Shown: piece after piece, positions 2 through 45,791 of the stretch
Layout of the letters: every line of letters starts with the position of its first letter
Numbering within the stretch: position 1 is the first letter of the stretch
Source of the DNA: a virus
Lineage: Duplodnaviria > Caudoviricetes
DNA: 52,218 nucleotides
IMG/VR virus record: IMGVR_UViG_3300033142_001318
Coordinates: 1 to 52,218 of that record
Strand: one strand, 5' to 3'
Notes under the pieces: model-generated
Databases searched by the model: none
Seen by the model: only the letters and a program-made list of their open reading frames with translations
Told to the model about the DNA's origin: nothing
Translations under genes and position numbers: made by a program

Positions 2-157
2 ACTGTGTGGGATTCTAAAACTAAGAAGAAGAAAAAGAAGGAAGCAGAAGACGAGGAAGAAACCACAAAGAGGGAACTTGATAAGTGGTCTATCGATGCC
101 CGGAACAAGATTCTTGGTGAACTGGAACAGATTTATGTTACAGGAAATATGAAATGA
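2..157 (+). CDS. 3' end of an upstream gene (possibly the portal protein, by position)
   Basis: Open frame TVWDSKTKKKKKKEAEDEEE...IYVTGNMK*, whose TGA overlaps the ATG at 154; identity inferred only from gene order. Confidence 0.45.
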   Translation, partial: TVWDSKTKKKKKKEAEDEEETTKRELDKWSIDARNKILGELEQIYVTGNMK

Positions 158-728
158 TTGAAATAAATTTGCACAAACTTGGATCTGAAATTGGTACGCA
201 TAAAGGACCAGTACAGGTTACCCGTGGTGGTAAAACGTTTACACAGATGAGACGGTTAGGAACGAAGAAAAAAGATATATATCCAGTGAGACAACCAGAA
301 AAAGATATAACACAGGTTGTGGCAGGTAAAACTTATACTGGAAAATTATATCACTCCACATCATTAAAAAATGCTGAAAAGATATCGAAAGAAGGATTCA
401 AGACAAAAGGGAAATTAACAGATAGGTATACCCCCGAACAAAGACAAGGTGCACAGACGTGGTCCAAGTACGGATTTATCTATTTTAATAATGATATGGA
501 AGATACAAGTAGATATGGTGATGCTACTTTTGGGCTATTGATAAACACGGATTTAGTAGTCCCGAAGTTGAAAAACTATATGCGGAACGAGAAGGAAAGC
601 ATGATGAAACAATGACGAATCTCGTTGTTAAAGAATTCAATAAGAAATATGATGGTATGATTGGACTGCCTGGTGATATTGTAATAACTAATCCAAATAT
701 AATAAAAAATATTAAAAGGATTAAATAA
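154..728 (+). pseudogene. Tagged ADP-ribosyltransferase-like protein, split by a -1 frameshift near 522-535
   Basis: N-terminal IEINLHKL and GTHKGPVQVTRGGKTF modules; ART-like LYHSTS..GF..IYF..A/TxxYG motifs in 154-615; the -1 frame (open 522-728) supplies KKYDGMIGLPGDIVITNPNIIK*, a typical ART C-terminal strand. Confidence 0.6.
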
Positions 729-732
729 AAAT

Positions 733-1308
733 ATGACCATAGAAATAAATCTCCACAAGCTCGAACGTGGCACACACGAAGGTGTGGTCACCGTCCGTCG
801 TGGTGGTAAAGTGTTCCAACGTAAACAACGTGTAGGTAAGAAAGAACCTGATGTGAAACCGGTACCATCAACGGAACTCACGATGGATTGTCTAGAGGAT
901 ATAAAATCTAAAGATGTGAAAGCGATAGATTTCGTGGTAGACCATGGGTGGAACGCAGAAAAATCACGATTATTTAGTAATTTTGTATCAAATGATAGTT
1001 TTGTATTTATGGAAAATGATAAAATCTCTGGTATAAGTGATCTCAGGATGAGATATGACAAAACGCTAATGTTATCACTTCTTGAAATTAATCCGGATAC
1101 ACAACGTCAAGGGAAAGGCGTGTCAGCGATGCGACAAATCGTTAGATATGCAATGGAGAATGACGCTAAAGAGATATCATTACAATCAATGGACGCAGAT
1201 TCCGATAAATTCTATGAAGCTATCGGGATGGAAAATAAAGGAAAAATCTTTATGACAAGTTTTGTCGGGAGTAAAGAATGGATGAAAGAGTTTATAAAGG
1301 CAAAATAG
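733..1308 (+). CDS. Tagged GNAT-family acetyltransferase
   Basis: N-terminal shared tag; acetyl-CoA motif A QRQGKG; motif B SDKFYEAIGM. Confidence 0.8.
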   Translation: MTIEINLHKLERGTHEGVVTVRRGGKVFQRKQRVGKKEPDVKPVPSTELTMDCLEDIKSKDVKAIDFVVDHGWNAEKSRLFSNFVSNDSFVFMENDKISGISDLRMRYDKTLMLSLLEINPDTQRQGKGVSAMRQIVRYAMENDAKEISLQSMDADSDKFYEAIGMENKGKIFMTSFVGSKEWMKEFIKAK

Positions 1309-1917
1309 ATCTTAAGGACACCCGAAATATGATTGAAATAGACATCAATAAATTAGAAGTCGGTACACATAAGGGGCCGGTGAAGGTTACCCGTGGTGGT
1401 AAAACGTTTATCCAACAACGACGTTTAGGTCAAAAGGAGAAAGTAAAAGAGAGTTCCGGTATCGAAATGAAAGCCTTGAAGGAAGCAAACGTTAAAGGTA
1501 TGGAACCCATGAATTTTATAAAATCTTTAGGATGGGATTATAAACATTCGTATTTCTTTGCTGGTAGTGTCCCGGATTATGTAAATATATGTACAGATAA
1601 TGATAAAATCGTTGGTATTACTAGTTATAATGTAGATGACGATAATAATTTTCACATTAATATTATTGAAGTAAATGGTTATAATCGCCGGCAGGGGGTC
1701 GGTGTAAAAATTATGGGTGAGTTGATCAAAGAAGCGATGAAAGCCGGTGCGGAGACTGTAAAATTGGAATCACTGGATGAAGACAGTGATAAGTTCTATG
1801 ACGCGATCGGGATGACAAAGTTAGTAATACCAAAAGCAACACAATCAGACATGAGTAGATATGAAGGTGATAAAGAATGGATGAAAGCGTTTATAAAGGC
1901 AAAATAGATCTTAAGGA
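1272..1917 (+). repeat. 47-bp direct repeat (1272-1318 and 1871-1917) spanning the ends of both GNAT genes
   Basis: taaagaatggatgaaag(a/c)gtttataaaggcaaaatagatcttaagga, one mismatch. Confidence 0.9.
1329..1907 (+). CDS. Tagged GNAT-family acetyltransferase (paralogue of 733-1308)
   Basis: Start reassigned to ATG 1329 (MIEIDINKL); RRQGVG motif A; SDKFYDAIGM; same C-terminus KEWMKxFIKAK. Confidence 0.8.
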   Translation: MIEIDINKLEVGTHKGPVKVTRGGKTFIQQRRLGQKEKVKESSGIEMKALKEANVKGMEPMNFIKSLGWDYKHSYFFAGSVPDYVNICTDNDKIVGITSYNVDDDNNFHINIIEVNGYNRRQGVGVKIMGELIKEAMKAGAETVKLESLDEDSDKFYDAIGMTKLVIPKATQSDMSRYEGDKEWMKAFIKAK

Positions 1918-1967
1918 AGCGAGGAAGTACGATCCACTTGTAGGATCAGAAAAAGAGGATGTAACTA

Positions 1968-2402
1968 ATGGTAGTAGAGAAACGAGGTAATAAGTGGTGT
2001 ACAATTTCGTGTCATCATGACCCTGGGGCTATTATTGCTTGTTTTCCTACGAAAGAAGCTGCAATGGCACAACATCGTGCTATCGAAGCGAGTAAACACG
2101 CTACAAAACTTGAAATAGACGTAGATGAACTTACAAAGTCGTCTAAACATTACGAATCTATCTCAGTAACCCGGGGTGGACGACAATTTAACCGGAGACA
2201 ACTCGTAGGATCCGACCTAAAACCACAGTGGAACAAAAAGATCAATCAAACCTGCACAGATATGGACACACAAGCGAAAAAGGGGATGTATTCCGTAACG
2301 TTAGCATCCGGACTTCGTCAGATGGCTAAACAGGCAGGACGACTATTAGAAATCGAGAAATTTCTATATGATGTGAAGAAACAGGCAGAATCTAATAAGT
2401 GA
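1968..2402 (+). CDS. Head-associated hypothetical protein with internal tag
   Basis: N-terminal KRGNKWC..CFPTKEAAMAQHRAIE module, then LEIDVDELTKS and SVTRGGRQFNRRQLVG. Confidence 0.65.
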   Translation: MVVEKRGNKWCTISCHHDPGAIIACFPTKEAAMAQHRAIEASKHATKLEIDVDELTKSSKHYESISVTRGGRQFNRRQLVGSDLKPQWNKKINQTCTDMDTQAKKGMYSVTLASGLRQMAKQAGRLLEIEKFLYDVKKQAESNK

Positions 2403-2454
2403 TTAAATGTTAAAGATGATAATTAATTATAATAATATAAATGGAGGGAAATAA

Positions 2455-2808
2455 ATGGCATTTGAAACTATTGATAACAGACAGTGGCGTATGCAGGTCG
2501 CCCAAAGAAAGGTTGAGGTCACGATCGTGACCGGGAAGACCGGATCGACTGATGTAGCGGTTAATGGGGAATTACTTAATTACGTAATCGTAGCACCTGA
2601 TCTTGCAACCGATGCAGATTTTACATTATCCTTCGTTAATGAAGATAGCGAAACGACATATTCCAAGAGTAGTATCAGTGATAACACAACTACGGCAGTA
2701 TTAGTATCAGCAACACCGGTACCGATGTCCGGTACGATTACAGTTACGTGTTCATGTACGACGGACCAGACGGATAAATCATTTACAATATATCTTTATT
2801 ATAAATAA
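2455..2808 (+). CDS. Small beta-rich putative virion protein
   Basis: GGAGG RBS; T/S/V-rich composition with alternating beta-strand pattern. Confidence 0.55.
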   Translation: MAFETIDNRQWRMQVAQRKVEVTIVTGKTGSTDVAVNGELLNYVIVAPDLATDADFTLSFVNEDSETTYSKSSISDNTTTAVLVSATPVPMSGTITVTCSCTTDQTDKSFTIYLYYK

Positions 2809-2823
2809 ATGTGGTGTTATTGA

Positions 2824-3186
2824 ATGTCCGAATGGAATCAGAAGGAATTATTAGGTAGTCCACGGTATAGCGCGAAGTCTACCGACCCGATTACGGGTAC
2901 GACTGTTAACACTTCTACTGCGGTGGTCGATTTGGATACCCGGGCATTTAACGACAGTGTACACATAATTGCTAACACCGGATCCAATACACTAAATTAT
3001 AGTGTGGAAGTCCGGAGTGATTATGCTAATGGGGATAATTTTGTTCTGTATTCTAACGCTGTTGTAGCAGGTGATGAGGACGAACTTATATTAGTACATC
3101 ATGCAAGAGTTTTTATATTTATACAGTCCGATTTAACAGATCACCACACGACATTCTCTATAACTTCAATCGGGAGTACAACATAA
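2824..3186 (+). CDS. Small beta-rich putative virion protein
   Basis: Operon-coupled ORF, beta-sandwich-like composition. Confidence 0.55.
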   Translation: MSEWNQKELLGSPRYSAKSTDPITGTTVNTSTAVVDLDTRAFNDSVHIIANTGSNTLNYSVEVRSDYANGDNFVLYSNAVVAGDEDELILVHHARVFIFIQSDLTDHHTTFSITSIGSTT

Positions 3187-3590
3187 TGGTAAAAATAAAA
3201 ATAGAATTAGATTTAGAGGATCTTATAAATGTGAATCAGGCATCTGATATTACACGATCACATCTTCCAACCGTTCCGGCTGATTATGACACACAACACG
3301 GTCTTAATAATCAAAAGATTTGGTATAAGACGTACGAAAAGGGTATGCGATGGGTTACGATGGAAGGTAGAGGTGAAACACCCTTAGATTGTACAGACAT
3401 AATTATACGGATGTCACCCGGGAATACGGATGTATTGGAAGACGAGATGACGTGTCAACACCCCGAATATGGCGAAGTTTCTTACGAAGATTACCCGGAA
3501 AATATGTACATTCAAACCGAGAGACTCCGACAATTAGAGGACGTGGGTTATGTGGAAGGTGGGGATAATCTCGTACCGATGGTGGTTTGA
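3186..3590 (+). CDS. Hypothetical protein with N-terminal IELDLEDL tag
   Basis: Start overlaps the previous stop; tag-like motif at residues 6-13. Confidence 0.6.
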   Translation: MVKIKIELDLEDLINVNQASDITRSHLPTVPADYDTQHGLNNQKIWYKTYEKGMRWVTMEGRGETPLDCTDIIIRMSPGNTDVLEDEMTCQHPEYGEVSYEDYPENMYIQTERLRQLEDVGYVEGGDNLVPMVV

Positions 3591-3968
3591 ATGGACCCCG
3601 GAATGATGGCATATCCGCCTAATATAGAGATAAAGAGATTTATAGTTACGACGTCTGCTGAGACGGATAGTCTAACACCCAAAGCAGGTAAAAGAATCCA
3701 CGTAATAGGACACACGACGTCTCAAGTCGTAGGGAGTAAAGTTACGGCTACGGTAAAAGCGACTTTAGCGTTTGGTAGAGATGGTGCCGATGTACCAGAT
3801 AAAATATTAGATAGTAATAATCAAATTCATATTAGTAGTCATACGAGTTCTCATGTAGATGATGTAAATATATTAGGTGATGTGGACGAGATTATACAAT
3901 TAAAAAATACTACATTCAGTTCCGGAAGTGTTACCACCCGAGCAACAATTTATTATCTTGAAGAATAA
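3591..3968 (+). CDS. Small beta-rich putative virion protein
   Basis: Abuts the previous gene; beta-strand-rich. Confidence 0.55.
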   Translation: MDPGMMAYPPNIEIKRFIVTTSAETDSLTPKAGKRIHVIGHTTSQVVGSKVTATVKATLAFGRDGADVPDKILDSNNQIHISSHTSSHVDDVNILGDVDEIIQLKNTTFSSGSVTTRATIYYLEE

Positions 3969-3990
3969 TTATAATTATAAGGAGTTATAA

Positions 3991-4329
3991 ATGGGAAAAA
4001 GGTTTGTCGAGCTTTCAGGTCGAGGTAGTGGTATACCCGATTACGCCCCCGAGACGATAGGTTCCGGGCGTCAGGTTATACCTACTGCCGGAACTGCGGT
4101 ACAACTTGCGAGCACATTGACGATAGGTGGAATAATCATTGTGGCAGAGTTTACTAACACCGGCATTGTCTGTGTGGGAGATCTCAATGTTGTTGCGGCG
4201 GAACTTACACGGCAGGGTGTTCCACTGAATGCCGGTGATGGCGTGATAATATGTATCGACAATATTTCCAAAATATGGATAGATTCTACATCTGATGGTG
4301 ATGGTGTGACTTATACGATGGTGGGTTAG
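3991..4329 (+). CDS. Small beta-sandwich putative virion protein
   Basis: AGGAG RBS; pattern A..TN.G.VCVGD...GVPLNAGD.....IDNISKIWID. Confidence 0.6.
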   Translation: MGKRFVELSGRGSGIPDYAPETIGSGRQVIPTAGTAVQLASTLTIGGIIIVAEFTNTGIVCVGDLNVVAAELTRQGVPLNAGDGVIICIDNISKIWIDSTSDGDGVTYTMVG

Positions 4330-4332
4330 ATT

Positions 4333-5982
4333 ATGGATCTAGATTACATAAAAGCACCGGATGCACCACCCGAATATGTGGCTGAGGTGAGTCCGAGTTT
4401 CCATTATAATTCGTTTAAACGGCAATTCCCGACCATACAGGAAGCCATAGACTTCATGCATGGAAAATACGGTGCACATACAGGTGTTATTATAAATGTA
4501 CACAGTGGTTATTATACAGAACAAATCCACAGTTACCCGGGGTATTTTATAAGGGGGATTGCACGACACGCCCCAACCAACGAATTACGTCCGGTAACAC
4601 TTTATAATACCGGTCTTGACCCGGCGCATTATCCGATGCGGGCAGAAGCTAATGATTTTTATCTTATGCAGAATATAAATATTATAACCGATGCAGGTGG
4701 TACATTTGGTAAACTCGGACAAGATAGGTACGACGGGGTCTATTTCGGTGGTGGATCATTTACAGAATCAACTTTTGACACGGTTGTATATAATACGTGG
4801 ATGGATTGTTCATTCGTAAACTCTAAAGCTTTTAATCTTACAGGTACGAACGTAGCTAATGCCCGTTATTTAGTGTTACTCAATTGTTGGTTCGGGTGGT
4901 GGCAAAACCCGGTACTCACATCGACACACACCGGTGGTTATGCAGTTTTTGATATGGACGGCGGGCACCTTGCGTTTACTAATTTGACGTTAGGTGGCGA
5001 TTGGTACCATTTTGCCAAAAATTATCATAGTTTCGGTGCTTATAGGCACGTATATGATACTACAGCCGGGATTGCATACAGAGGTGTGACGGTATCAAAC
5101 GGAATTCATTTCGTGTCTGACCCGGGAGTATTCCAGATGGCGAACTGTGATATGTTGGACTCCGCCGAAATGCCTTTACCTGCGGATCAGTGTGATATTA
5201 CGGCTGATGTCCCAATTACAGATGCCATATTGGTAGGAAATCAAATGTTTAATGGTATCTGTGGCGAGATCCAGATAACAGATCATGTGAAGAACGTTGG
5301 TGGAGACGCTTCAAATAAATATTTTGATCTTGTGGAAGCTGTTAAATCTGTAACAGGTGAAGATATCATAATGTTAGGTGAAGACCAGATAGATGTACCG
5401 AAACTCACAATGCCGGCATCAGGGACGGTTCAGATCAGGGGACGTTCACTGTACGGAATTACATTCACAGGTGATATTGCAGATTTGACAGCGAATGATA
5501 TATTAATATTTGATGCGTGTGGAGCGATTACGGGAGGAACCGTAAACGTGAACGGGAATAATGCTGAACTTCACATGCATGGGTGTATATGTTCAGAAAA
5601 TGCATTCGAGATTCTTGTGACTTCCGGTACGGATGCTATTGTACATATACGTGATTCTTCACTTACAGGGAGTGCGGGAAAATCTGCTCTTCAGATTAAT
5701 AGTATAGATCCATCGTATAAGGTTTCGTTCTCACGTCTTACAGGTGCAACTGGAGAGCCAGCTGTGGAATTTACCGTGGAAGCAGACGACAAGTTTAAAG
5801 CGAAATTTTCAACGTTATTACATGGGGATGGTGGGGCGAATTATCCGGTTATTTATACTGGTGCAGGAAAAATTTCAATCGCCGTATATAATTCGGGACT
5901 TAATTCTCCGTGGAATGCAGCTGAATTTGCAAATAGTATCGGAGGGGCTAATAATGCCACAGATATAGCTATCGATTTCTAA
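4333..5982 (+). CDS. Parallel beta-helix (pectin-lyase-like) spike/adhesin
   Basis: FPTIQEAID..IINVHSGYYTEQI cap motif and a second YFDLVEAVKS..DIIML cap, suggesting two beta-helix units. Confidence 0.6.
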   Translation: MDLDYIKAPDAPPEYVAEVSPSFHYNSFKRQFPTIQEAIDFMHGKYGAHTGVIINVHSGYYTEQIHSYPGYFIRGIARHAPTNELRPVTLYNTGLDPAHYPMRAEANDFYLMQNINIITDAGGTFGKLGQDRYDGVYFGGGSFTESTFDTVVYNTWMDCSFVNSKAFNLTGTNVANARYLVLLNCWFGWWQNPVLTSTHTGGYAVFDMDGGHLAFTNLTLGGDWYHFAKNYHSFGAYRHVYDTTAGIAYRGVTVSNGIHFVSDPGVFQMANCDMLDSAEMPLPADQCDITADVPITDAILVGNQMFNGICGEIQITDHVKNVGGDASNKYFDLVEAVKSVTGEDIIMLGEDQIDVPKLTMPASGTVQIRGRSLYGITFTGDIADLTANDILIFDACGAITGGTVNVNGNNAELHMHGCICSENAFEILVTSGTDAIVHIRDSSLTGSAGKSALQINSIDPSYKVSFSRLTGATGEPAVEFTVEADDKFKAKFSTLLHGDGGANYPVIYTGAGKISIAVYNSGLNSPWNAAEFANSIGGANNATDIAIDF

Positions 5983-6298: not shown

Positions 6299-6703
6299 AT
6301 GAAAGATTTTAGTAATTATATATTAATAGTAGATGACAGTGTGGCGTATATGCGTCTATTATTAGAATCTATGGTCGATAATGGCAATGGGAAACTCTCC
6401 GGGCATATTCTTTTTGCAGAGGATGCCGACAAAGGTTTTGAATTGTACGTATTATATCGTCCTATGATTGTTCTTATGGATGTTCGAATGCCCGGGAAAT
6501 CCGGGATCGATGCAGCTAAGATGATTGTGGATTATGATAAATCTGCAAATATAATGCTGGTTACGAATTATAGTAATGATCCTGGAATTAGTAAGGCTAT
6601 ATCAGACAAATTAGTTAATGGAAAGATTGATAAAGGAGTTGGGGTTGGTATTATCGCCGCTATGGTAACAATAATACTTAAAACTGCTGGTAAATTGTTA
6701 TGA
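6299..6703 (+). CDS. Response regulator receiver (CheY-like) with C-terminal hydrophobic helix
   Basis: ILIVDDS, phosphoacceptor LMDVRMPG, conserved T (LVTN) and K (IDKG); tail VGVGIIAAMVTIILK. Confidence 0.9.
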   Translation: MKDFSNYILIVDDSVAYMRLLLESMVDNGNGKLSGHILFAEDADKGFELYVLYRPMIVLMDVRMPGKSGIDAAKMIVDYDKSANIMLVTNYSNDPGISKAISDKLVNGKIDKGVGVGIIAAMVTIILKTAGKLL

Positions 6704-6817
6704 TGGGTAATGTTAGAAAGGGATTGGATGATATCTATGGCTATGGAGTACTTTTAGATATTTCCAAATTTATGGAAGAACAATATAAAAATAGATATAA
6801 GATTAGGGATGATATAA

Positions 6818-7555
6818 GTGGACGGTATATTAAATAAAGAATTCGTAACAAATTTACAGGTATTCCAGAACCGATTTTCAGATTTCTTCGGTGTTGCATC
6901 GGCGATCTTTGATGACACGGGAAAAATGATTACAGAACCTTCCGGATTTACAGATTTTTGTAAAACGATACGTGCTACGAAGGACGGGGGTAGGGCGTGC
7001 CGGGATTCCAAGAAAGGACTTTTCGATATAGTAGCAAACGGTGAACCTGCAACATACCACTGTGCGATCTTTTCACAATTGGCAGATTCGATTGTTCCGG
7101 TCATGTGGAATGGTAAAGTTATTGCTGCATGGGCGATAGGACAGAAACGTGTTGAGGATATTCCAAGATCAGAAATCAATAAGACGGCAGAAAGGATCGG
7201 TGCGAAACCGGATGACTTGTGGGCTGGTTACGAAAAACTACCACTTACCACGATGGATGAGTTTGAGAAGGCTGTGTTTTTCCTTCATACCACGATTTCA
7301 ACGATCATGAAGATGCGGGAACAAGATATTGAATTAAAAGAAACCTTGGATAAATTTACAACTATAAATGGTATTGTGGCACATGATATGCGTGAATCAT
7401 TATCAACTATATTAGGATTTATAAAATTACTCGATAATAGATATGGTGCTACCGAAAATGATGAATTCAGGGATTTCGTGTCCTATATCGTTACCTACGG
7501 TGAAAAACTTAAAAATACGGCAAGCTTACTAATCGATGCCTGTGAAAAGAGGTGA
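6818..7555 (+). CDS. PocR sensor domain plus HisKA/DHp domain, no HATPase domain
   Basis: PocR pattern LQ.FQ..FS..FG.A..I.D..G..IT..S.FT.FC..IR...G...C..S...YHC...L.D...P.....IGQ; H-box AHDMRESLSTILGF; ends shortly after the DHp helices. Confidence 0.85.
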   Translation: MDGILNKEFVTNLQVFQNRFSDFFGVASAIFDDTGKMITEPSGFTDFCKTIRATKDGGRACRDSKKGLFDIVANGEPATYHCAIFSQLADSIVPVMWNGKVIAAWAIGQKRVEDIPRSEINKTAERIGAKPDDLWAGYEKLPLTTMDEFEKAVFFLHTTISTIMKMREQDIELKETLDKFTTINGIVAHDMRESLSTILGFIKLLDNRYGATENDEFRDFVSYIVTYGEKLKNTASLLIDACEKR

Positions 7556-7769: not shown

Positions 7770-8561
7770 GTGAATTTAATGGATGATATATTAGAAAAAG
7801 GTGCTGTGATAGACTTTATAGCGAAATTATTAAAGTCTATAGACATACCGGGTTTCCGGGTACTACTTACGAGTAGGGTCATAAACGCCTTCACGTCGTC
7901 ACACGAGGACACCAACGAAGAATACAACCTCGGTAGGACAAAAGCAGATCCCTTAGCACTTGATTATCTCCGTGAGCGTGAATTAATTCTTTCAGATAAA
8001 ACTAAATCGAAATTGGATGGTGATCTTAAGTTTGAGATTCTGGAGGCAATGAAGGCTAATGAATCGATCTCAGAGATTACAAACCGTTTAGATGGGATAT
8101 TTACAGATATGTTACCGTGGCAACTCGAGAGAATCGCCCGGTCGGAGGTTGTAAATGCCCAGAACGCCGGTCGTCAATCGGCATACGAAAAATCCAGTGT
8201 GGTTAAATATAAAATGGTAGTCGGTGCAAAGGATAAACGACTATGCGCATTATGCCGACGAATGCAAGGTCAAATTCAACCTGTAGATAAACCATTCCGA
8301 GACCCGGAAAATCCGACTAAGACGTGGATGTATCCTATATTCCATGCGAATGGACGGTGTTCAACAGTACCTCTGATACGACTTCCGGACAATGTGATTA
8401 CTGTGGGTGGACAGATGTATGCTGGAGATAAGAAACTCGGGAAGATCGAAATTAATATTGAAAAATTATTAAAGTCCGAAGATCCACAGACACATGAAGT
8501 TTGGGTCAAGCAAACAGCGAAACGAAAAGGGCATTGGCGAACTATTAAAAATAAAATATAA
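7770..8561 (+). CDS. Head morphogenesis protein (MuF / SPP1 gp7 family)
   Basis: RIARSEVVNAQNAG, CALC and PIFHANGRCS motifs; C-terminal IEINIEKLLKSE tag. Confidence 0.85.
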   Translation: MNLMDDILEKGAVIDFIAKLLKSIDIPGFRVLLTSRVINAFTSSHEDTNEEYNLGRTKADPLALDYLRERELILSDKTKSKLDGDLKFEILEAMKANESISEITNRLDGIFTDMLPWQLERIARSEVVNAQNAGRQSAYEKSSVVKYKMVVGAKDKRLCALCRRMQGQIQPVDKPFRDPENPTKTWMYPIFHANGRCSTVPLIRLPDNVITVGGQMYAGDKKLGKIEINIEKLLKSEDPQTHEVWVKQTAKRKGHWRTIKNKI

Positions 8562-8573: not shown

Positions 8574-8732
8574 ATGACAGAAAAAGGTGAACCGAAACGA
8601 GATGGTTCCGGTGGTGGAACGCGCGCTAACTATAACCGTGGTGGGTGTCAGGATGGCGAGACGTGTGATGTCCTGGGAAATGTAATAAGAGAGCAATATC
8701 CGAGACGAGGTAATAGGAATAATGGCAGGTGA
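8574..8732 (+). CDS. 52-aa Gly/Arg-rich protein
   Basis: AGGTGA RBS; PKRDGSGGGTRANYNRGGC; not in the ORF track. Confidence 0.45.
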   Translation: MTEKGEPKRDGSGGGTRANYNRGGCQDGETCDVLGNVIREQYPRRGNRNNGR

Positions 8733-8919
8733 AGGTAGGAAAGAACCGGAAAGTATTGAAACGTTTTCGGTTGATGATTATAAAGATAAATTGATCTCGG
8801 AAGGATATTCGGATTCTACGGCATTGATGCTTGCAGAGAAAAAACGAGATAAATTATCGGAACAAGCAATGAAAATGGAAAAATCAGAATTGATAGAAAT
8901 TGATTTATCAAAACTTTAA
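8722..8919 (+). CDS. Small protein ending in the tag (MEKSELIEIDLSKL)
   Basis: GAGGT RBS; C-terminus matches that of the prohead protease. Confidence 0.65.
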   Translation: MAGEGRKEPESIETFSVDDYKDKLISEGYSDSTALMLAEKKRDKLSEQAMKMEKSELIEIDLSKL

Positions 8920-8978: not shown

Positions 8979-9917
8979 ATGATAGGTAGACCTCCAGATA
9001 AAATGAAGAAAATAATAAAACCATGTAAACAATGTGGTGAATTATTTGAATCTTATATATCTAGTAATAGAAAGTTCTGTTCACTTAAATGTAGATCAGA
9101 TTATTATACTGGTGAGAATCATCCTATGAAGAAAGAAGAATCAGAACTTATAAGATACACAAAAAAGTGTCGAAATTGTGGTATAGAATTTACAAGTTGT
9201 GATTATAAGGCTATTTTTTGTTCACAAGAATGTTCACATGTATGGCATAATAGTGACAAAAACCCTAATCGTACGAGTAAAATATTTATAAATTGTAAAC
9301 AATGTAATAAATTATTTACTATTTATCCAAGTGAAAAAGATAATAGGAAATTCTGTTCACATGAATGTGCGGATACTTGGAGGAGAGAATCTGGATTATA
9401 CAAAGGTGAAAATTCTGTACATTGGAAAGGTGGTAAGGTAACAGTTATTTGTAAACAGTGTGGTTGTGAATTTAAAGTAGATCCACATCAAAAAGATATA
9501 AAGAAATTTTGTTCTAATACTTGTTATTATATGTGGATGTCAGAAAATAAATGTGGGAAAAATAGTCCAGTATGGAAAGGTGGAATTTCATTTGAACCAT
9601 ATTGTGAAGATTTTAATAATGCTAAAAGATTGGAGATTCGTGAAAAATATAATAATTGTGATTATTTAACTGGAATCCATCGTGATATCTGTAATGTTAC
9701 GAAGAGTGGTAAAGTTAGAGAATTGACAGTCCATCATGTGGATTATGATAAACGACAAGGTTGTGACGGTATTAAATGGAAATTGATTCCTGTATCAGGT
9801 AGGCACAATTCTATGTTTAATAAAAATAGATCATTTTGGGAACGATTAATATTATACGCATTAGAATATGATGAAGAATATTATGAAAATAAAGAATTTA
9901 ATATATTAGATATTTAA
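8979..9917 (+). CDS. HNH homing-endonuclease-like protein with four zinc-ribbon repeats
   Basis: Repeated CxxC...FCSxxC units, WKGG motifs, C-terminal LTVHHVDYDK...HN; AT-rich; own promoter. Confidence 0.8.
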   Translation: MIGRPPDKMKKIIKPCKQCGELFESYISSNRKFCSLKCRSDYYTGENHPMKKEESELIRYTKKCRNCGIEFTSCDYKAIFCSQECSHVWHNSDKNPNRTSKIFINCKQCNKLFTIYPSEKDNRKFCSHECADTWRRESGLYKGENSVHWKGGKVTVICKQCGCEFKVDPHQKDIKKFCSNTCYYMWMSENKCGKNSPVWKGGISFEPYCEDFNNAKRLEIREKYNNCDYLTGIHRDICNVTKSGKVRELTVHHVDYDKRQGCDGIKWKLIPVSGRHNSMFNKNRSFWERLILYALEYDEEYYENKEFNILDI

Positions 9918-10001: not shown

Positions 10002-10943
10002 ATGGAGGAACAAGAAGAAAATAAAATCACAGATAACGAATTCAATTATCATGGTGAATTGACTAAAATAGAGAAATCAAATGATGGTAATATCTATATC
10101 GCCGGAATTTGTACAACAGAAAAAATGGATCATGACGGTGAAATCGTAGATCTGAACGAGGTCCGGAAGGTGTGGGATGATTACATGACCAACCCCGTAC
10201 TAAAATACATGCACGGTAAGGACACATCGAACATGGCTGCTATTGGGGTTGTGGTGCCTTCTTATACAGATTCGACAGGTAAGATGTGGAAGACCGAATT
10301 TACTGATGAGGGACCGTTTATTGTATGTAAGATATCAAATGCCCCGGATACGGAAAGTATCCGAACAAAAGTTGAAGAGGGGATCGTGAAGGGCTTTTCA
10401 ATTGGTGGGAGAGCAAAAAGAGTAAAAACATTCGATCCTACACTACAAAAAGACGTAAATCGTGTTATAACAACCCGGATCTCAGAAATAAGTCTCGTAG
10501 ATCTACCAGCAAATCCTGACTCGTTCTTTTCAGTACTAAAAGCAGCATGTGTGGGAGATAACTGTCCCATGAATGACGACACAGAAACCATCGAGAAGGG
10601 TGAAGGCAAAGCCCCTAAAACGTGGTGGGACAACTGTATGGGAACCGCAAAGGGGATCCCGGGTATGAAAGATGCATCAGCATTCTGTGGTTGGATGTGG
10701 GCACACGGTAAGGAAGATTTCGGACCACAACGGAGCGAAATTGGTAAGATTGAGGACGATCCGATTGTAGACCAAGCGGTGGCAAAATTTGAAGAGTTAA
10801 TTGTGGAAAATGCCACATTGAAAGACAGATTAGAGAAACTCGAAACGGGTTTGGATAACATGGTAAAGATCGAAGAGGAAGATCTCACCGTCCAAAAATC
10901 TGAAAACAGTAATCTAATCGAAATTAATTTACAGGAACTATAA
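10002..10943 (+). CDS. HK97-type prohead protease with C-terminal coiled coil and tag
   Basis: DHDGEIV, catalytic H (YMHG), GFSIGG, EISLVDLPANP; ends QKSENSNLIEINLQEL*. Confidence 0.9.
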   Translation: MEEQEENKITDNEFNYHGELTKIEKSNDGNIYIAGICTTEKMDHDGEIVDLNEVRKVWDDYMTNPVLKYMHGKDTSNMAAIGVVVPSYTDSTGKMWKTEFTDEGPFIVCKISNAPDTESIRTKVEEGIVKGFSIGGRAKRVKTFDPTLQKDVNRVITTRISEISLVDLPANPDSFFSVLKAACVGDNCPMNDDTETIEKGEGKAPKTWWDNCMGTAKGIPGMKDASAFCGWMWAHGKEDFGPQRSEIGKIEDDPIVDQAVAKFEELIVENATLKDRLEKLETGLDNMVKIEEEDLTVQKSENSNLIEINLQEL

Positions 10944-11042: not shown

Positions 11043-11567
11043 ATGATAGGAGGAAAAACTATGGAACAAGAAGAAGGAATTGTTCGGCTAGAAGTAGACG
11101 AACTTACGAAATATATCGAAGATACCGTTACTAATATGGTCGAGAAGCAGGAGACAGTTGAAAAACTCGAGGATTACGACAGACTCGTAGCTGAGCTCAA
11201 GGATATGCGAAAGAAGATCGAAGATCTTGAAGCAGCGGCAAAGGCTAACGTGAAGAGTATGAAGACAGGTACCGAGACATCATATAAGTCAGAGGGTGAT
11301 GTAGAAGATCCTGATACTGTGGAGAAGGCTAAAAAGAAGGAAAAGGAACCAAAGAAGAAGTATGATGACGAGGGTAACGAAATCACTGAAGAGGCGGATA
11401 TGACCGTCAAAAAGATGGAAGAGTTAGAGGCTGAGATTGCGGAACTAAAGGCGAGCCCTCTATATAAGGCACAGCAGGACGAGGGTACAGTCGAGAAGAC
11501 TGAGTCTACCGAGACACCGACGGGTATACTGTCAGGTGTAATCGCAGCACATTACGGAGGTAATTAA
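11043..11567 (+). CDS. Capsid scaffolding protein (start could be 11061)
   Basis: Highly charged coiled coil lying between the protease and the capsid gene. Confidence 0.75.
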   Translation: MIGGKTMEQEEGIVRLEVDELTKYIEDTVTNMVEKQETVEKLEDYDRLVAELKDMRKKIEDLEAAAKANVKSMKTGTETSYKSEGDVEDPDTVEKAKKKEKEPKKKYDDEGNEITEEADMTVKKMEELEAEIAELKASPLYKAQQDEGTVEKTESTETPTGILSGVIAAHYGGN

Positions 11568-11568: not shown

Positions 11569-12618
11569 ATGGCAAAAGATGGGTGGGGAAATGGTGGAGA
11601 AATCGACCATGAATCCCTTTATAAGATGAGTTTCGGTGAACTCCCGGATGAGAGTATCTTCGAAGATGCAATGAATGGTGTACACACGTTCGCAAAGGGT
11701 GAGAAACTTGTGACACAAACCGGAGAAGGCGAACTAGCGAAGGCTGTTAATGTGGGTGCCGCATCCGGTGCCGCAGGGTATGCGTATACCCCGATTGTGT
11801 GGGATCAGGCAGTAATTGATATCACACGGAGAATGACCCCTCTAATTGGTCTAATCCCGAAGGTGACCAATAAGGGTAAAGTTGCGCAGTATTATCGTGT
11901 TACCGCAAGAGGAGCTGCAACGTGGGGCGCCGAGGATCCAGCACTTAATGAGACGGATGATACGAAGGAAGAGGCGAGTGAAGCAATCAGATATCTACGT
12001 GTCACCGGGCGTGTAACTGGTGTTGCACAGATCGCGGGCGCTCACTTCGAGAGTTCAATGCAGAGAGAAGTTCTTAATAAGACACAATCAATGAATGAAG
12101 CACTTGAGGCTGCTATTCTGACAGGAAACAACGCTACGGACCAGTACCAGCATGATGGACTTCAACAACTTCTAACGTCTAATTCATCAAGTCAGGGTGG
12201 AGCTATCACTCTATCTGCTGTAAGAAAGCTTGTAAGTGATTGTTTTGTTGCAAAAGGTGCACCAAATTTGATCGTAACAGATCCTTACACAGCAGATGAT
12301 CTTGTTGAGCAGATTATGGACTACACAAGATATGTTGATCCTAATGTAACACTTGCATGGGGACTTCAACTACCATCTGTTCAGACAGTAGTTGGTAGGG
12401 TTCCAATTCTGGCAAGTCAGTTTATGCCGAATACGAGCACAGAAAGACGTCTGTTCTGTATTAACACCAACTTTATCCAGCAGAGAATTCTGAAGGATAT
12501 CACGTTCGAAAGACTGGCGAAGACAGGAGATTCTGAGAAGTTCTTCCTATCAACGTACAGGACGATGGTTAACAAATTCCCTGAAGGTATGGGCCAACTT
12601 TACGAAATATCGGACTAA
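11569..12618 (+). CDS. Major capsid protein, HK97 fold
   Basis: Follows protease and scaffold; AKA.. GYAYTPIVWD..I, TPLIGLIP, E.AILTG, DGL, GRVPILASQFMP patterns. Confidence 0.85.
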   Translation: MAKDGWGNGGEIDHESLYKMSFGELPDESIFEDAMNGVHTFAKGEKLVTQTGEGELAKAVNVGAASGAAGYAYTPIVWDQAVIDITRRMTPLIGLIPKVTNKGKVAQYYRVTARGAATWGAEDPALNETDDTKEEASEAIRYLRVTGRVTGVAQIAGAHFESSMQREVLNKTQSMNEALEAAILTGNNATDQYQHDGLQQLLTSNSSSQGGAITLSAVRKLVSDCFVAKGAPNLIVTDPYTADDLVEQIMDYTRYVDPNVTLAWGLQLPSVQTVVGRVPILASQFMPNTSTERRLFCINTNFIQQRILKDITFERLAKTGDSEKFFLSTYRTMVNKFPEGMGQLYEISD

Positions 12619-27706: not shown

Positions 27707-28411
27707 ATGACAATAGAAATCAAAATAAAAGACTTACGAAAAGCCGAACGTGGTACCCATACAGGACCGGTGCAGGTAACACGTGAAGGAAAGACGTTCG
27801 TACAACAACGTCGGGTTGGTCGAAAGGACACCGGTAAGATAGCATCCCTTCCACAAGAACTTAAAGATGAGATCCTTACTTTGAGAAGACAGAATGATTC
27901 TGGTGCTAAGATCAAGACTGCGATTGAAACTATGATAAAGAATAGAATGGGTAAGTTATCATTAGGTAAGGAATTTGAAGCTAAAAGACATGAATTGACG
28001 AACAAATATGATACGGCAACCAAAGCTGGTGATAAAGAAGAAATGAAGAGATTGTGGTCAGAAATCAAATCAATGACGGATAAAGAAGAGAAATTTACTG
28101 ACTCACCAGAATTCAAATCCGGTGCCGTAACTAAAGATGGTAAACTGACAATTACAGGTCAGGCATTGGTTTCATGGGCACAAAGTAGGGGTGTCACAGG
28201 TAAAACCAGAAAAACTGTGGCACAAGTGGCAGCAGAAAAGGATAAAGAGTGGACGGAACGGTGGAATAAGCTTAATAAAGAGAAGGCAAGACTTGAAATC
28301 GAATTGAAAGAGTCGGAGAATAATGCCAGTGCGCAAAGGACGCAAAAACTCCGAATACAGGATCGGTTAGAAAATTGCCAAAATAGATTATCTCAGGCTA
28401 AGAATAAGTAG
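27707..28411 (+). CDS. Tagged basic helical protein inserted in the neck module
   Basis: MTIEIKIKDLRKAERGTHTGPVQVTREGKTFVQQRRVG, then KIASLPQELKDEI and a coiled coil. Confidence 0.75.
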   Translation: MTIEIKIKDLRKAERGTHTGPVQVTREGKTFVQQRRVGRKDTGKIASLPQELKDEILTLRRQNDSGAKIKTAIETMIKNRMGKLSLGKEFEAKRHELTNKYDTATKAGDKEEMKRLWSEIKSMTDKEEKFTDSPEFKSGAVTKDGKLTITGQALVSWAQSRGVTGKTRKTVAQVAAEKDKEWTERWNKLNKEKARLEIELKESENNASAQRTQKLRIQDRLENCQNRLSQAKNK

Positions 28412-38612: not shown

Positions 38613-39656
38613 TTACTTACCGTGGTATATCCCATCACAGGTCGGGTAATCGTAGATATACTCATAACCTTGCATTCTACTTAGGGACATTCTACGTAGA
38701 TTTGTATGTATCGTATATTCACCATCTACATAATCACCACCCAGATTGATAAATGACCCTACTATTTTTATATCGCCTAATTGGTCCGTAGGTAACTTGA
38801 TTCTTACAGAATCATTCATTATACGGTGTCCACCGTTCGGATTATCTATGATCGTAGGTTTGAAGGATGCTATCATTTCATCATCTACGAATATTTCTAC
38901 ATGTTCTATCTGATCATAGGAATCTCCTTTTCTCCATCCACCGTAACGTGTAGAGATACACCCAAATATGATCTCATCGGGGTATTCCTTTATGTACTTG
39001 AAGTTACCTTGATATGTCAAACTAATATGACTTCCGGTTAATCCGACTTGATAATCTAGTGTTGATGTTGGTATTGGTGTTGGTGTCGGAGTGATTACGG
39101 GTGTCGGTGTTGATAATATCGTTGGTGTCGGTGTCGGTTCAACGTATCGTTCCGGTACTATTGTTGTGTCCAGTTTCGGGTTTGGTATCCCATTGAATCT
39201 CGTGTTGATTAATTCTTGGACTTTACCGTCTTCGAATGTACCTTCACAGGTTACTTTCCAGTCACCGATTATCGTACATCCAATTTTTCGTGGTACTTGA
39301 CATTCCGGTGAATAAAGATCTATGGTCTCACCATTTACCAGGACACGAAGTTCCTTAAGGAGGTGGAAATCCCTACCACCATTTACTGATATGATAAGTG
39401 TATCATATTCTTGTTGAGCACATATTTGAACATGATATGATCTCTGAATTGGTGCCGGTGTAGTCTGGAGTGATGTTAATACAGGTTCTTCGTATTCGGT
39501 ATTATCTGTGGCGATTCTGGATTTCTGTATGGATGCTATTGAGGCGTCTTCTATGGTACTTGTCGTTATCGATCCTATACACCCGGACATTAGTATGCTG
39601 ACAATTAAGACAGCAAGCAAAGCGATTTTGGTTCGGTTTTGTGTCATGTTGTTCAC
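38613..39656 (-). CDS. Lipoprotein with Pro/Thr linker and a pilin-like beta domain
   Basis: Signal peptide with lipobox-like LMSGC; PTPTP linker; VNGG.D...L..L.V.VNG...GTFEDG..Q.LI.T. Confidence 0.7.
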   Translation of the reverse strand: MNNMTQNRTKIALLAVLIVSILMSGCIGSITTSTIEDASIASIQKSRIATDNTEYEEPVLTSLQTTPAPIQRSYHVQICAQQEYDTLIISVNGGRDFHLLKELRVLVNGETIDLYSPECQVPRKIGCTIIGDWKVTCEGTFEDGKVQELINTRFNGIPNPKLDTTIVPERYVEPTPTPTILSTPTPVITPTPTPIPTSTLDYQVGLTGSHISLTYQGNFKYIKEYPDEIIFGCISTRYGGWRKGDSYDQIEHVEIFVDDEMIASFKPTIIDNPNGGHRIMNDSVRIKLPTDQLGDIKIVGSFINLGGDYVDGEYTIHTNLRRMSLSRMQGYEYIYDYPTCDGIYHGK

Positions 39657-39700
39657 ATCCTTATAGACTTTTGCCTATAATGTATTATTGGGCGTGATCC

Positions 39701-39736
39701 TATATAAAGATTGTGGTTTAAAACTTTAAAAGTTTT
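39701..39736 (-). promoter_or_regulatory. Palindrome + BRE + TATA promoter
   Basis: Minus strand reads AAAACTTT-T-AAAGTTTT aaaccacaatc TTTATATA. Confidence 0.75.
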
Positions 39737-40139
39737 AAATCGTATCCCTTAATATTTTTCTTACCACTGTTTCTTCCCCCCACAGATTAAATGACAATAT
39801 CAGACACCTCTTCTCATTGACTACTTTTACAGCTTTTTCTTCATTGTCCGTATTCACTTTATAGATCATAAATTCCCCAGATTCCCAAGGGTAAAATCCG
39901 TAAAAACCACTTTCATCTGTTGGTTTAACCATGTGCCTTACATTTTTAGTTGTACCATCTTTTGTCATCCATACTTGGATTATATCGATGGGTTGCGTGG
40001 AAGGGTCGAGTTCAAACTCTTCGACATTACCGTACTTAAAATTCATACGGTACTTTTCTGCTTCATCTTCATCTGTGAAGACGGCATTAATGTGATAATC
40101 CGAATAAGTACCACTCGTTACAACGAAAACTTTTTTCAT
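39735..40139 (-). CDS. Hypothetical viral protein
   Basis: KVFVVTSGTYSDYHINAVFTDEDEAEKY motif; GGAGG RBS. Confidence 0.65.
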   Translation of the reverse strand: MKKVFVVTSGTYSDYHINAVFTDEDEAEKYRMNFKYGNVEEFELDPSTQPIDIIQVWMTKDGTTKNVRHMVKPTDESGFYGFYPWESGEFMIYKVNTDNEEKAVKVVNEKRCLILSFNLWGEETVVRKILRDTI

Positions 40140-40721
40140 TTATTTCCTCCTATTTATGATCTTAACTTTTTTACGCGTGGAAAACTTATCGCAGAAAGTC
40201 GGGATACTGAAATTCTTACGGTACCGAGTATATTTCAACCCAAAATCATTTATCATCTTCGATATCCGGGTGTCAATGTCCTTCGCAAAGTCCGGATCCG
40301 TTGACCGCGTACCGTCTTCTTTTAGCCATTTAAGATTTAATGGCATATAGATTATGTAATCATATTTTTGTGACCAGTAGCGGGCTATCTCGACCATCTG
40401 TAGGTATTCTACGACCGGGAACGGTTTATGATTTTCACTGATCCTTTCCATATAACATAGATTATCCAATATAGCACGATTATATAGAATTATATCAGGA
40501 TCTTTATATTCAGCCTCTAATTCTTTTGTTAATTGTTCATGGAAAATCCATCGTTGTGATAAAAAGGTTCCTTGTTCGTTAATCCCGAACGGACACGAAC
40601 GAGCAACCTCTTCCACGACGTTAACTGTCTTACCACGCCGGTGAAGTTCTTTCTGAAGTTTTGACACCAGCGTTTTCTTCCCAGTTCCCTGAGATCCTAT
40701 GATGGCTATTTTTACATTCAT
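40140..40721 (-). CDS. P-loop nucleotide kinase-like protein (AAA_28 type)
   Basis: IAIIGSQGTGKKT, EVAR, NRAILD..Y, DGTR. Confidence 0.8.
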   Translation of the reverse strand: MNVKIAIIGSQGTGKKTLVSKLQKELHRRGKTVNVVEEVARSCPFGINEQGTFLSQRWIFHEQLTKELEAEYKDPDIILYNRAILDNLCYMERISENHKPFPVVEYLQMVEIARYWSQKYDYIIYMPLNLKWLKEDGTRSTDPDFAKDIDTRISKMINDFGLKYTRYRKNFSIPTFCDKFSTRKKVKIINRRK

Positions 40722-41035
40722 CCGTAATAGTTCCTACAATCGGATTCGTCCTCTGATTCCGGTTCTGGTTCTGGTTCTTGCATTTCAGCCATTCGTGCTA
40801 TCTGTTCTTTGAGTGCATTATCAGAAGCCGCATGGATTTCCTGCATGATCTCTTCATCATAGTCCGAACGTCTCCATAGGACATCATGTGGTACTATGGT
40901 AAGAAAATGTGTCGGTTTTCCTTCTTTATTAATTTCTATCATTCGTAGATAGAATATTCCATTTTCGATGAAAGGATATACCATTTCCTGGACATCGAAA
41001 TCATCTTTCGTTCCTCTAATTCTTATTGTCTGCAT
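40718..41035 (-). CDS. Hypothetical protein
   Basis: Operon-coupled ORF with GGTGA RBS. Confidence 0.55.
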   Translation of the reverse strand: MQTIRIRGTKDDFDVQEMVYPFIENGIFYLRMIEINKEGKPTHFLTIVPHDVLWRRSDYDEEIMQEIHAASDNALKEQIARMAEMQEPEPEPESEDESDCRNYYG

Positions 41036-41420
41036 TTATATCACCTTCTTTATCTAATGACATTAATTTAATTCTGTCTATCTCTGAAAGATAATGCATC
41101 ATCTGTTCTTCCAGAATTTTGTCGATAGCACCTATTCGTACCAGCATCTCTTCATTGTTACTATGCCCTTCCTTTATAGCACGGTTTGTAAGTCGGTCAC
41201 CATCAGCGAAGAGTAATCGCATCATTCTGTGGACGAATTCCACTGTGTTCTCTGTTTTAATCTCATTCATCCGTCCGGGTAAGATCTGATCTCGCCAGAT
41301 CCGGAATCTACGACTAAAATGTACATCGATCTTATACGCAGCCTTTTTATTAACTACTGTTACAGATTCGAATAGGCCGAAAAATTCACTTTCTGTTAAA
41401 ACATCTCCTATATCTTCCAT
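41016..41420 (-). CDS. Hypothetical protein
   Basis: GGTGA RBS; upstream BRE/TATA-like sequence near 41457-41474. Confidence 0.55.
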   Translation of the reverse strand: MEDIGDVLTESEFFGLFESVTVVNKKAAYKIDVHFSRRFRIWRDQILPGRMNEIKTENTVEFVHRMMRLLFADGDRLTNRAIKEGHSNNEEMLVRIGAIDKILEEQMMHYLSEIDRIKLMSLDKEGDINADNKN

Positions 41421-41479
41421 ATTATCACCTTATCTATATACTATTGTACTTAATCATATTTAAACTTTGTGATTATACT

Positions 41480-42322: not shown

Positions 42323-42333
42323 CTAATTATCCT

Positions 42334-43479: not shown

Positions 43480-43675
43480 GATTGGATCTCCAGTATCTGT
43501 TTGTCTATGATTAATCTGTCACATCGGTATAATACGAGACATTTACTATGATGTGTTATCGAAAATGATGTAATAATCTCGTCATCGTAGACATCGATAA
43601 TCCCATATTCCATTTCTACTCTATTCAGTTCCATCATAATATGTCATTAACCTTAATCCTATATAAAGTTTGTGG

Positions 43676-44395: not shown

Positions 44396-44693
44396 CTTCA
44401 TCATCTTCGTCATCCTCGAATTCAAATAATTCAAATTTACTACAAACACATTCCAGACTTATGTCGTCACCGCGTAGATTACATGCCGGACGGTATAAGT
44501 CTACGTGTTTACAGCGCTCTACTAATCCAGTCCGATTGGATGTGAAACGGTTGGTCTTTAAGCTGTGTATATCCCTTATCAGGGAAATTCATATCGAATA
44601 GCTTCGATGCGAAATCCATGAGTTGTTCTTTCGTTAATTCTAATTCCATCATATTATATCACCTTATATATTTTGATTACTTGGTCTCATTTC

Positions 44694-45781: not shown

Positions 45782-45791
45782 AAATTAAAAG

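Follow-up and report, generated by a model that had tools for sequence, protein, structure and literature searches.

The viral DNA analyzed here, called the window throughout, is the complete IMG/VR record IMGVR_UViG_3300033142_001318 (Duplodnaviria; Caudoviricetes), which comprises 52,218 bases and has an estimated completeness of 59%. The left third of the window is a head-morphogenesis block on the plus strand, and near its left end lie four clustered genes, with a fifth distant from the cluster, whose proteins carry a short leader ahead of their C-terminal payloads. These are leader gene 1 (ORF154, 154-728), leader gene 2 (ORF733, 733-1308), leader gene 3 (ORF1329, 1329-1907), leader gene 4 (ORF1968, 1968-2402) and the distant leader gene 5 (ORF27707, 27707-28411), all on the plus strand. 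In ORFs 154, 733, 1329 and 27707 the leader consists of a tag of the form IEI[ND/K]xxxL, followed directly by a basic module of the form GTHxGxVxVTRGGKTFxQxRRxG. We propose that this leader is probably an unrecognized address label by which enzymes are packed into the virus head and so reach the host.

A sequence-only reading of this DNA had noticed the module common to these four ORFs. To avoid circularity, we left the window's own sequences out of the search profile, which was made from the 13 non-window rows of alignment A3 and run with filters off against 1055 six-frame segments of the window, and all four copies were recovered with E-values between 1.3e-15 and 2.5e-12, which confirms that the shared module is real. 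Copy 1, GTHKGPVQVTRGGKTFTQMRRLG, occupies 193-261 (ORF154 residues 14-36; E 1.3e-15) behind a tag at 157-180, copy 2 lies at 769-837 (ORF733 residues 13-35; E 2.5e-12), copy 3 at 1362-1430 (ORF1329 residues 12-34; E 1.6e-15) and copy 5 at 27752-27820 (ORF27707 residues 16-38; E 1.4e-14), each on the plus strand. In a DNA alignment the window copies differ at synonymous sites, which indicates that selection acts on the peptide itself; these differences ruled out recent gene conversion and an RNA-level element as explanations for the repeated sequence.

The two less regular copies that had been proposed fared differently. The "degenerate copy" of ORF1968 is fairly described as such but is borderline, as its match at 2142-2210 (plus strand; E 0.017) falls below the threshold, where it is the top match, ahead of the next at 0.46. 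It follows an internal tag at 2109-2132, so that ORF1968 consists of an N-terminal domain (residues 1-45), the tag, the degenerate module and a C-terminal part without an assigned family; residues 2-49 match phrog_3684, and the N-terminal domain is kept in the related loci L002 and L003. The C-terminal peptide of the MuF-family minor head protein (8490-8558), which had been called loosely similar to the module, was not detected by the non-window profile, and the likeness did not hold in that sense. The peptide is nonetheless a conserved basic variant in its own right, since the relative P0060 starts with a tag and nearly the same peptide and continues into an HExxH domain.

The tag is not confined to the leader genes. 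A strict pattern for it matches the window 10 times, where shuffled sequences give an expectation of 0.07, and 10 of 10 fall in plus-strand ORFs. Six are N-terminal, in ORFs 154, 733, 1329, 27707 and 3186 and at an internal methionine of ORF7536; two are internal, in ORF1968 and in the MuF protein; and two form the very last residues of their proteins, ORF8722 and the prohead protease. Basic peptides other than the module take its place after the tag at the end of the MuF protein and in ORF7536, where there is a run of Lys and Arg. In the relative P0045 the tag also stands at the junctions between an upstream ORF and the protease and between the protease and the scaffold. The tag looks like a virus-specific element that assembly proteins have in common. 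A parallel was seen in the complete and unrelated genome G005 (L009/L125, 95.8 kb), in which the motif MDL[IL]KA occurs exactly twice, at the N-terminus of the scaffold and just upstream of a module. P0045 itself (906 aa) runs in one frame through a leader-bearing HD-like protein ending in the tag, the prohead protease and the scaffold, and may be a genuine polyprotein or the product of gene calling that ran across gene boundaries.

We next considered what the leaders of the window are joined to. In leader gene 1 the record reads 154-615 (153 aa), with 94 bases absent between 532 and 533. Contigs from 4 of 4 public runs, one of which may be the record's own sample, have 94 extra letters at this point; the only homologues of ORF154 are five proteins of 215-222 aa; one of them, P0151 (222 aa), is 99% identical to the first three quarters of ORF154; and the missing C-terminal 64 residues can be read in another frame of the window, at 534-725. 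The homologue lengths together with the 94-letter excess in the contigs indicate that ORF154 as recorded is an artefact of the gap, which may be either an assembly fault or a minor variant, and the intact protein, as read from these sequences, is of 222 aa.

This payload had been described as ART-like (ADP-ribosyltransferase-like), and the assignment did not stand up well. ORF154 has no Pfam family match, the sole match of P0151 in a Pfam search at E up to 5 was DUF7002 at E 0.28, and neither protein had a significant match in the PDB. The P0151 payload was compared by hhalign with four leader proteins whose own ART-PolyVal matches (E 6e-7 to 1e-5) all fall short of the family cut-off; the alignment covered 75 columns, including YH[ST]S and G.IY, at E 9.3e-4 with a probability of 22%. 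The protein atlas gave a further lead for ORF154/P0151, placing ART-PolyVal on 24% of the members of one cluster (score 0.92). In an hhalign comparison of the P0151 family with P0003 the module alone was aligned and the ART domain was not. The payload is thus possibly, on weak sequence likeness, a PARP-like/ART-PolyVal-like (PF18760) ADP-ribosyltransferase.

The payloads of leader genes 2 and 3, by contrast with that of leader gene 1, bore out the families proposed for them. Both proteins consist of tag, module and a GNAT acetyltransferase domain (PF00583 E 9.5e-8 for ORF733 and 9.3e-8 for ORF1329), and each scores 32.8 bits against the curated cut-off of 20.7. The acetyl-CoA binding motif A of GNAT enzymes, Q/R-x-x-G-x-G/A, is present as QRQGKG in ORF733 and RRQGVG in ORF1329. 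The true start of leader gene 3 is the ATG at 1329 rather than 1278; one population variant contains an extra base behind 1323, in the stretch that separates the stop of ORF733 (1308) from 1329, and this base would shift the frame of any ORF begun at 1278. ORF27707 has a tag, a module and a payload without a family, and neither this payload nor the C-terminus of ORF1968 matches a Pfam or PHROG family. None of the five leader proteins of the window matches MuF (PF04233). With the corrected end of leader gene 1 (728), the four clustered genes are 3-60 bases apart with no small ORF between them, a spacing that leaves no room for cognate immunity genes.

Contigs from the public runs indicated population variation in the same region. 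In runs X3 and X4 contigs match the window up to 275, just past leader 1, and then diverge, and others begin at 338; the stretch 1289-1406 is present as two alleles in each of the four runs; and a short-sided joint skipping 1886-2031 was found in three runs. The clustering of this variation at the leaders (275, 338, 1289-1406 and 1885-2032) may reflect cassette exchange or the presence of related viruses.

The module is widespread outside the window. A scan of IMG/VR returned 8 module loci, a profile of 18 copies run against 1.84 billion cluster representatives matched 291 proteins at E <= 1e-3 (11 at <= 1e-10), and a search for the window-type leader among 5.8 billion clusters returned 134 proteins. 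The best 150 of the 291 proteins contain 162 modules; 123 of the 150 have a module within the first 60 residues and 11 carry 2-3 copies. Two main flavors could be distinguished, the window type, tag-ERGTHxGxVKVTRGGKTFxRKQRVG, and a second, GLVxKKVxVxRGGKTFxQxxWV, which mostly lacks the tag. In species genomes a degenerate pattern of the eight core residues gave 115 stretches against about 138 expected by chance (an estimate that assumes equal base frequencies), of which two were clear profile matches, L041 and L065, both in Spirochaete metagenome-assembled genomes (MAGs; E 6e-11 and 4e-11), and the next best locus reached 2.7e-5 over 14 residues. A search of plasmids with P0022 gave no match.

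Among 158 modules the core positions are strongly conserved (V0.89, V2.98, R4.96, G6.97, K7.91, T8.85, F9.97, Q/R11.94 and V15.74), and the module has a mean net charge of +5.3 over 24 residues. We predict from this pattern a basic beta-hairpin of about 24 residues with the core VxVxRGGKTFxQ, in which a two-residue turn at positions 5-6 would place V0, V2, R4, K7, F9 and Q11 on one face. AlphaFold models of ORF154 (single sequence, pLDDT 34.3) and P0151 (five sequences, 47.5) have two strands at the module, at low confidence. The earlier reading would have failed if the module were an already described stand-alone domain of unrelated function. It is not one: nothing in Pfam or PHROG overlies it in any protein scanned, and its profile matched no PDB chain at E up to 10.

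The proteins that carry the module are highly diverse downstream of it. Among 135 proteins of up to 700 aa we found ADPrib_exo_Tox (12), ART (8), GNAT (4), DRAT (4), ATLF-like peptidase (3), PI3/PI4-kinase-like (3), SAM lyase (2) and M90 peptidase (2) domains, and single cases of topoisomerase IB, 2H phosphoesterase, ART-PolyVal and a Fam20C-like kinase. Large module proteins contain NUDIX, DNA ligase, InPase, RadC, SNF2-like helicase, PARP, LPD1, DUF5661 and DUF6582 domains, and the module copy of L041 (a Treponema MAG) carries RelA_SpoT. Precomputed Pfam domains were available for 23 of 120 listed window-type proteins (GNAT 6, ADPrib_exo_Tox/ART 6, ART-PolyVal 4, DRAT 3, PI3/PI4-kinase 3, MuF 1), leaving 97 without one. 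P0151-P0154 are 71-83% identical overall with leaders less alike, so that one payload is joined to different leader variants. A profile search of metagenomes with a catalog of payloads had been suggested as a way to see whether carriers hold one payload type; there are many carriers and their C-terminal domains vary. The constant N-terminus with interchangeable payloads thus held for the window and its relatives alike, as a portable module on unrelated families, and the sequences support a polymorphic-payload reading.

Where the module is not at the N-terminus, it is found next to head proteins or between domains. L003:8516-9970 (P0024) and P0339 have a MuF domain recognized by Pfam, followed by tag, module and payload, as had been foreseen in the proposed link between module and MuF, and in L006 a MuF part without a Pfam match precedes the module by eye. 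P0050 joins a prohead protease to tag and module. In L007 four module copies are distributed over two giant ORFs around Nudix, HD-like and ART-like parts (the latter two by eye), in P0003 a module flanks ART-PolyVal on both sides, and modules also stand between domains in P0002 and P0034.

The genomic position of the module genes was also constant. They lie between the portal and the S78 protease genes in 6 of the 6 records in which both could be placed. In the window the portal gene ends at 157, the module genes occupy 154-2402 and the protease gene begins at 10002; in L002 the portal gene (2065-3762) is followed by module genes at 3743-5949; and in L003/G006 the portal lies at about 3.9-4.8 kb, the module genes at 5.0-9.97 kb and the protease at 11.4 kb. 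The corresponding positions are 49.6-50.5 kb, about 50.7-54.4 kb and 66.1 kb in G005, and 47.8 kb, 41.0-39.7 kb (a single module ORF) and 33.0 kb in G002, where all are on the minus strand; in G003 a portal-MuF open frame (20.9-22.4 kb) precedes module ORFs at 25.6-31.8 kb and a protease at 34.2 kb. Neither a portal nor a protease gene was found in G004, a 15% fragment. The S78 protease is thus present in the window and in 4 of the 5 related records searched, the fifth being that fragment, and a Pfam MuF match is present in 2 of the 5 and in neither of the 2 complete ones.

Taken together, the place of the genes between portal and protease, the fusions to MuF or protease in relatives and the sharing of the tag with the C-terminus of the protease make it likely from context that the leader proteins are packaged into the virion. 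They had been read as stand-alone virion-delivered effectors; head-gene position and the MuF and protease fusions agree with delivery by the virion, and packaging itself is drawn from that context. We therefore give an even chance to the reading that the module is a portable capsid-loading leader for virion-delivered effectors. The leader would be ordered as a virus-specific tag (IEI[ND]LxKL), a basic beta-hairpin, a charged linker and an interchangeable enzyme. Most likely, the tag would dock the cargo to the core of the assembling procapsid. The hairpin would be a binding element with its conserved side chains on one face, and this face together with the high positive charge suggests that it anchors the cargo to something that all these heads share, for which we favor the packaged DNA, with a PF04860-type portal as the alternative. 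The other basic peptides that follow the tag in MuF and ORF7536 fit the binding of DNA. Cargo anchored in this way would remain in the head until it leaves with the genome at infection, and host targets would then be open to the action of the GNATs, ADP-ribosyltransferases and other enzymes. The hairpin fold, its binding role and partner, and delivery into the host are all parts of the proposal that we infer. When complex formation was predicted for the leader (A7, residues 1-45), the capsid protein (A8) and the scaffold-like protein, the score was 0.00 in a run without controls, which is neutral on binding. A broader version, in which the VxVxRGGKTFxQ hairpin is a general cargo address that works in unrelated capsids through shared DNA or an HK97-type portal, is in our view tentative and somewhat doubtful.

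Several observations weigh against capsid loading by tag and hairpin. A strict tag is found within 40 residues upstream of 64 of 162 modules and is lacking there in the other 98, so the model of a tag plus a hairpin may hold for the window's type only. The MDL[IL]KA parallel in G005 was spotted post hoc and is only six residues long. The fold is predicted from the sequence pattern and low-confidence models; the module resembles no known DNA-binding or portal-binding motif in Pfam or, by profile, in the PDB at E up to 10; and tblastn of P0035, ORF1329, the C-terminal 64 residues of MuF and P0001 against 50,697 GenBank phage records found no module. MuF was considered as a general partner of the hairpin and rejected, as a Pfam MuF match is absent from both complete module-bearing records. 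The presence of leader proteins in the virion is a reading of gene context and fusions. Finally, modules that stand between the domains of giant proteins would suit a processing site no less than a binding element.

The head proteases of T4 and phiKZ-like phages remove propeptides, and the hairpin could similarly be mainly a processing junction, recognized or cut by the S78 prohead protease at or beside it. Such cleavage would free single enzymes from polyvalent proteins within the head and strip off the docking tag from stand-alone cargo; it is compatible with packaging and differs from the preferred reading only in the part played by the hairpin. Modules do separate one domain from another in L007, P0003, P0002 and P0034, and payloads from MuF or protease, the tag is likewise at junctions in P0045, the protease gene accompanies the module in the records noted above, and the removal of N-terminal targeting peptides by the head protease is established for T4 and mentioned in passages of PMC9024508. 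However, the alternation of V.V.R and K.F.Q around a GG turn is the pattern of a folded hairpin with one conserved face and not of an extended cleavage site, and many modules begin within the first 10-20 residues, where nothing upstream is worth removing. This is the main rival explanation, which we consider unlikely; the two roles are not exclusive because the T4 targeting peptide does both. If instead the hairpin acts after entry, as a handle for nucleic acid or a host target (DNA, RNA or the ribosome) with packaging achieved through the tag or MuF only, its strong positive charge would be accounted for, as would its retention across viruses with unrelated capsid genes, which argues for an invariant partner, and the payload enzymes do act on macromolecules or nucleotides. 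Yet the module is carried by the prohead protease of P0050, which has no role in the host, it always lies within the head-gene block, and no known nucleic-acid-binding family matched it in the Pfam and PHROG scans or the PDB profile search; we regard action after entry alone as distinctly improbable.

The constant N-terminus and variable C-terminus also recall classical polymorphic toxins directed against competing cells, such as the MuF toxins of temperate phages, with the leader serving as a homology handle for the swapping of cassettes. RelA_SpoT, ART and peptidase payloads are found in MuF toxins as well (PMC5576092 and PMC12226406), P0151-P0154 join the same payload to different leader variants, and contigs in two runs match to 275, just past the leader, before diverging. 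On the other hand, the 3-60-base gaps leave no space for immunity genes, GNATs, SAM lyase, Nudix and topoisomerase would be unusual as toxins, and the copies, with their synonymous differences, are not maintained as identical DNA on which recombination could act. The window ORFs scanned, with only 59% of the genome present, included no integrase or lysogeny gene. We thus give this explanation very little chance, and capsid loading remains the reading we prefer.

The leader proteins have counterparts among known systems. Passages of PMC5512222 and PMC9503650 describe head-packaged ADP-ribosyltransferases, Nudix proteins and other enzymes, their fusions to MuF, portal or capsid protease, and the location of their genes beside head genes, and the payload repertoire of the module relatives matches that of the head-packaged polyvalent proteins and MuF toxins treated there. 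Polyvalent proteins (Iyer et al., 2017; PMC5512222) are, in the passages concerned, the same kind of presumed injected, head-packaged enzymes encoded beside portal, MuF and protease genes, and their repertoire recurs in module relatives as ART-PolyVal, InPase, RadC, LPD1, SNF2-like helicase, Nudix and PARP. Multi-domain polypeptides of this sort are found among the relatives (P0003, P0002, P0018, P0010 and L007), whereas each leader protein of the window has one payload, as against 2-15 effector domains per polypeptide in polyvalent proteins, and no MuF. None of the "hairpin" passages of PMC5512222 concerns the module and the word "linker" is absent from its text, the supplementary domain lists, which might name it, lying outside what was covered. 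MuF toxins (Jamet et al., 2017; PMC5576092) share, in the text covered, the layout of a constant head-associated N-terminal part and a variable C-terminal enzyme; the words "motif", "linker" and "cleav" have 0 occurrences in that text. The relatives L003/P0024 and P0339 have this layout as MuF, leader and payload, and L041 has a RelA_SpoT payload, but the constant part in the window is a leader of about 40 residues in place of a MuF domain, and immunity genes are absent. The leader proteins of the window would therefore work like MuF toxins and polyvalent proteins and draw on the same pool of domains, while lacking the defining feature of each. Virion-delivered effectors as such are known; what is new is an unnamed and widely shared leader.

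Short targeting peptides provide a second comparison. According to passages of PMC9024508, a reporter enters the capsid when it carries no more than the first 30 residues of P1 DarB, and a capsid targeting sequence at the N-terminus is likewise described for T4. As with the module, a short N-terminal peptide there directs unrelated cargo, including the T4 ADP-ribosyltransferase Alt and the P1 anti-restriction enzyme DarB; those signals are, however, phage-specific, without a sequence conserved across viruses, and proven in function, whereas the core described here is common to at least 291 clusters and is known from sequence alone. Enzymes packaged in the head and injected are established for T4 and P1 and presumed for MuF toxins and polyvalent proteins; to our knowledge, cargo selection is understood only for T4 and P1, whose signals are not conserved. 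Short terminal peptides also dock cargo in shells of the HK97 fold in the case of encapsulin cargo-loading peptides and of the HK97 protease with its C-terminal targeting tail. The tag resembles them in its placement at the C-terminus of the protease and the N-termini of cargo, a likeness drawn for position and for the tag rather than the hairpin. We found no description of this conserved hairpin in the literature, and the seven-letter core occurred in 0 papers in a full-text search, supplementary files not being covered; a paper on JBD30 deals with a decoration protein and has no bearing on the module.

If the hairpin is a general address, any enzyme given a leader of about 25 residues would be loaded and injected, and the module would be the first capsid-loading signal known to keep its sequence from one virus lineage to another, as well as a ready tool for loading foreign proteins into phage heads. 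Short of that, the leader would still give a sequence rule for spotting virion-delivered effectors in metagenomes, where 97 of the 120 listed window-type proteins have no Pfam domain. It would also reduce the question of how cargo enters and leaves phage heads to a test of one peptide, and it would be a candidate handle with which to bring foreign proteins into capsids.

Assays on archaeal lysate had been proposed for the payload enzymes, which presupposes an archaeal host. The only taxon-labelled relatives are from Patescibacteria MAGs, namely a Dojkabacteria capsid homologue (52% identity) and a Pacebacteria leader protein, and the match of the capsid protein to that of the haloarchaeal virus HHTV-2 is only 26% identical. 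With evidence thus divided among Patescibacteria, Spirochaete MAGs and the 26% match to HHTV-2, the choice of archaeal substrates is premature and the assumption was not upheld. The 16 runs listed for the record are hydrothermal vent metagenomes in 15 cases and marine in one; seven runs dated 2018, which come from seven coded studies, contained 0.81-0.95 of the sampled words, and they may belong to one campaign and include the sample behind the record.

The remaining genes of the head block are as follows. The record begins within the portal gene, of which the last 51 codons are present (2-157, plus strand). Their product matches the C-terminus of the protein of L002:2065-3762 (BLASTP E 4e-6), a Phage_portal protein (PF04860, E 6.6e-31), and the gene order downstream of it is the same as in the window. 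A run of small genes (154-4329, plus strand) is followed by a 549-aa ORF at 4333-5982 (plus strand), which is 57% identical to its L002 counterpart and has no Pfam or PHROG match; it was considered as the portal and rejected, the portal gene being the one that ends at 157. Among the small genes, ORF3186 (3186-3590) begins with the tag IELDLEDL; its homologue is the N-terminal part of the P0050 protein, which continues into the prohead protease, and it adjoins the protease gene region in L003. A response-regulator receiver (6299-6703, plus strand; PF00072 E 4.4e-11) and a PocR and HisKA sensor (6818-7555, plus strand; PF10114 E 1.7e-34) form a two-component pair at 6299-7555, between ORF4333 and MuF, which is unusual for the structural module of a virus.

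The MuF-family minor head protein (7770-8561, plus strand; PF04233 E 7.6e-10) has no payload and ends in a tag at 8445-8468 and the basic peptide described above. Next comes the small ORF8722 (8722-8919, plus strand), whose C-terminal end is exactly the tag and whose N-terminal part is shared with the relative P0004 (E 7e-13), in which module and payload come next; in the window it is followed by an HNH endonuclease gene (8979-9917, plus strand). ORF8722 may be a remnant severed by insertion of the HNH gene, or a separate form that has the tag only. The S78-type prohead protease (10002-10943, plus strand; PF14550 E 3.7e-6, PF04586 E 8e-5) has the tag at 10917-10940 as its last residues. A scaffold-like protein (11043-11567, plus strand) was assigned from its sequence and its place between the protease and capsid genes and has no family match; its N-terminal stretch RLEVDEL has a weak likeness to the tag and fails the strict pattern. 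The major capsid protein (11569-12618, plus strand) belongs to the SU10_MCP/DUF5309 family, with PF17236 precomputed on 120 of 120 listed homologues and a PHROG annotation as major head protein.

At the other end of the window, 38613-52218 is a replication and repair block on the minus strand. It includes genes for an ATP-dependent DNA ligase (42334-43479), an RlaP RNA-repair nucleotidyltransferase (43676-44449), an RFC/Rad17-like AAA ATPase (44694-45566), an N6/N4 DNA methylase (47820-48671) and a large helicase (48789-50597), together with a tRNA-Trp gene (50937-51007), all on the minus strand.

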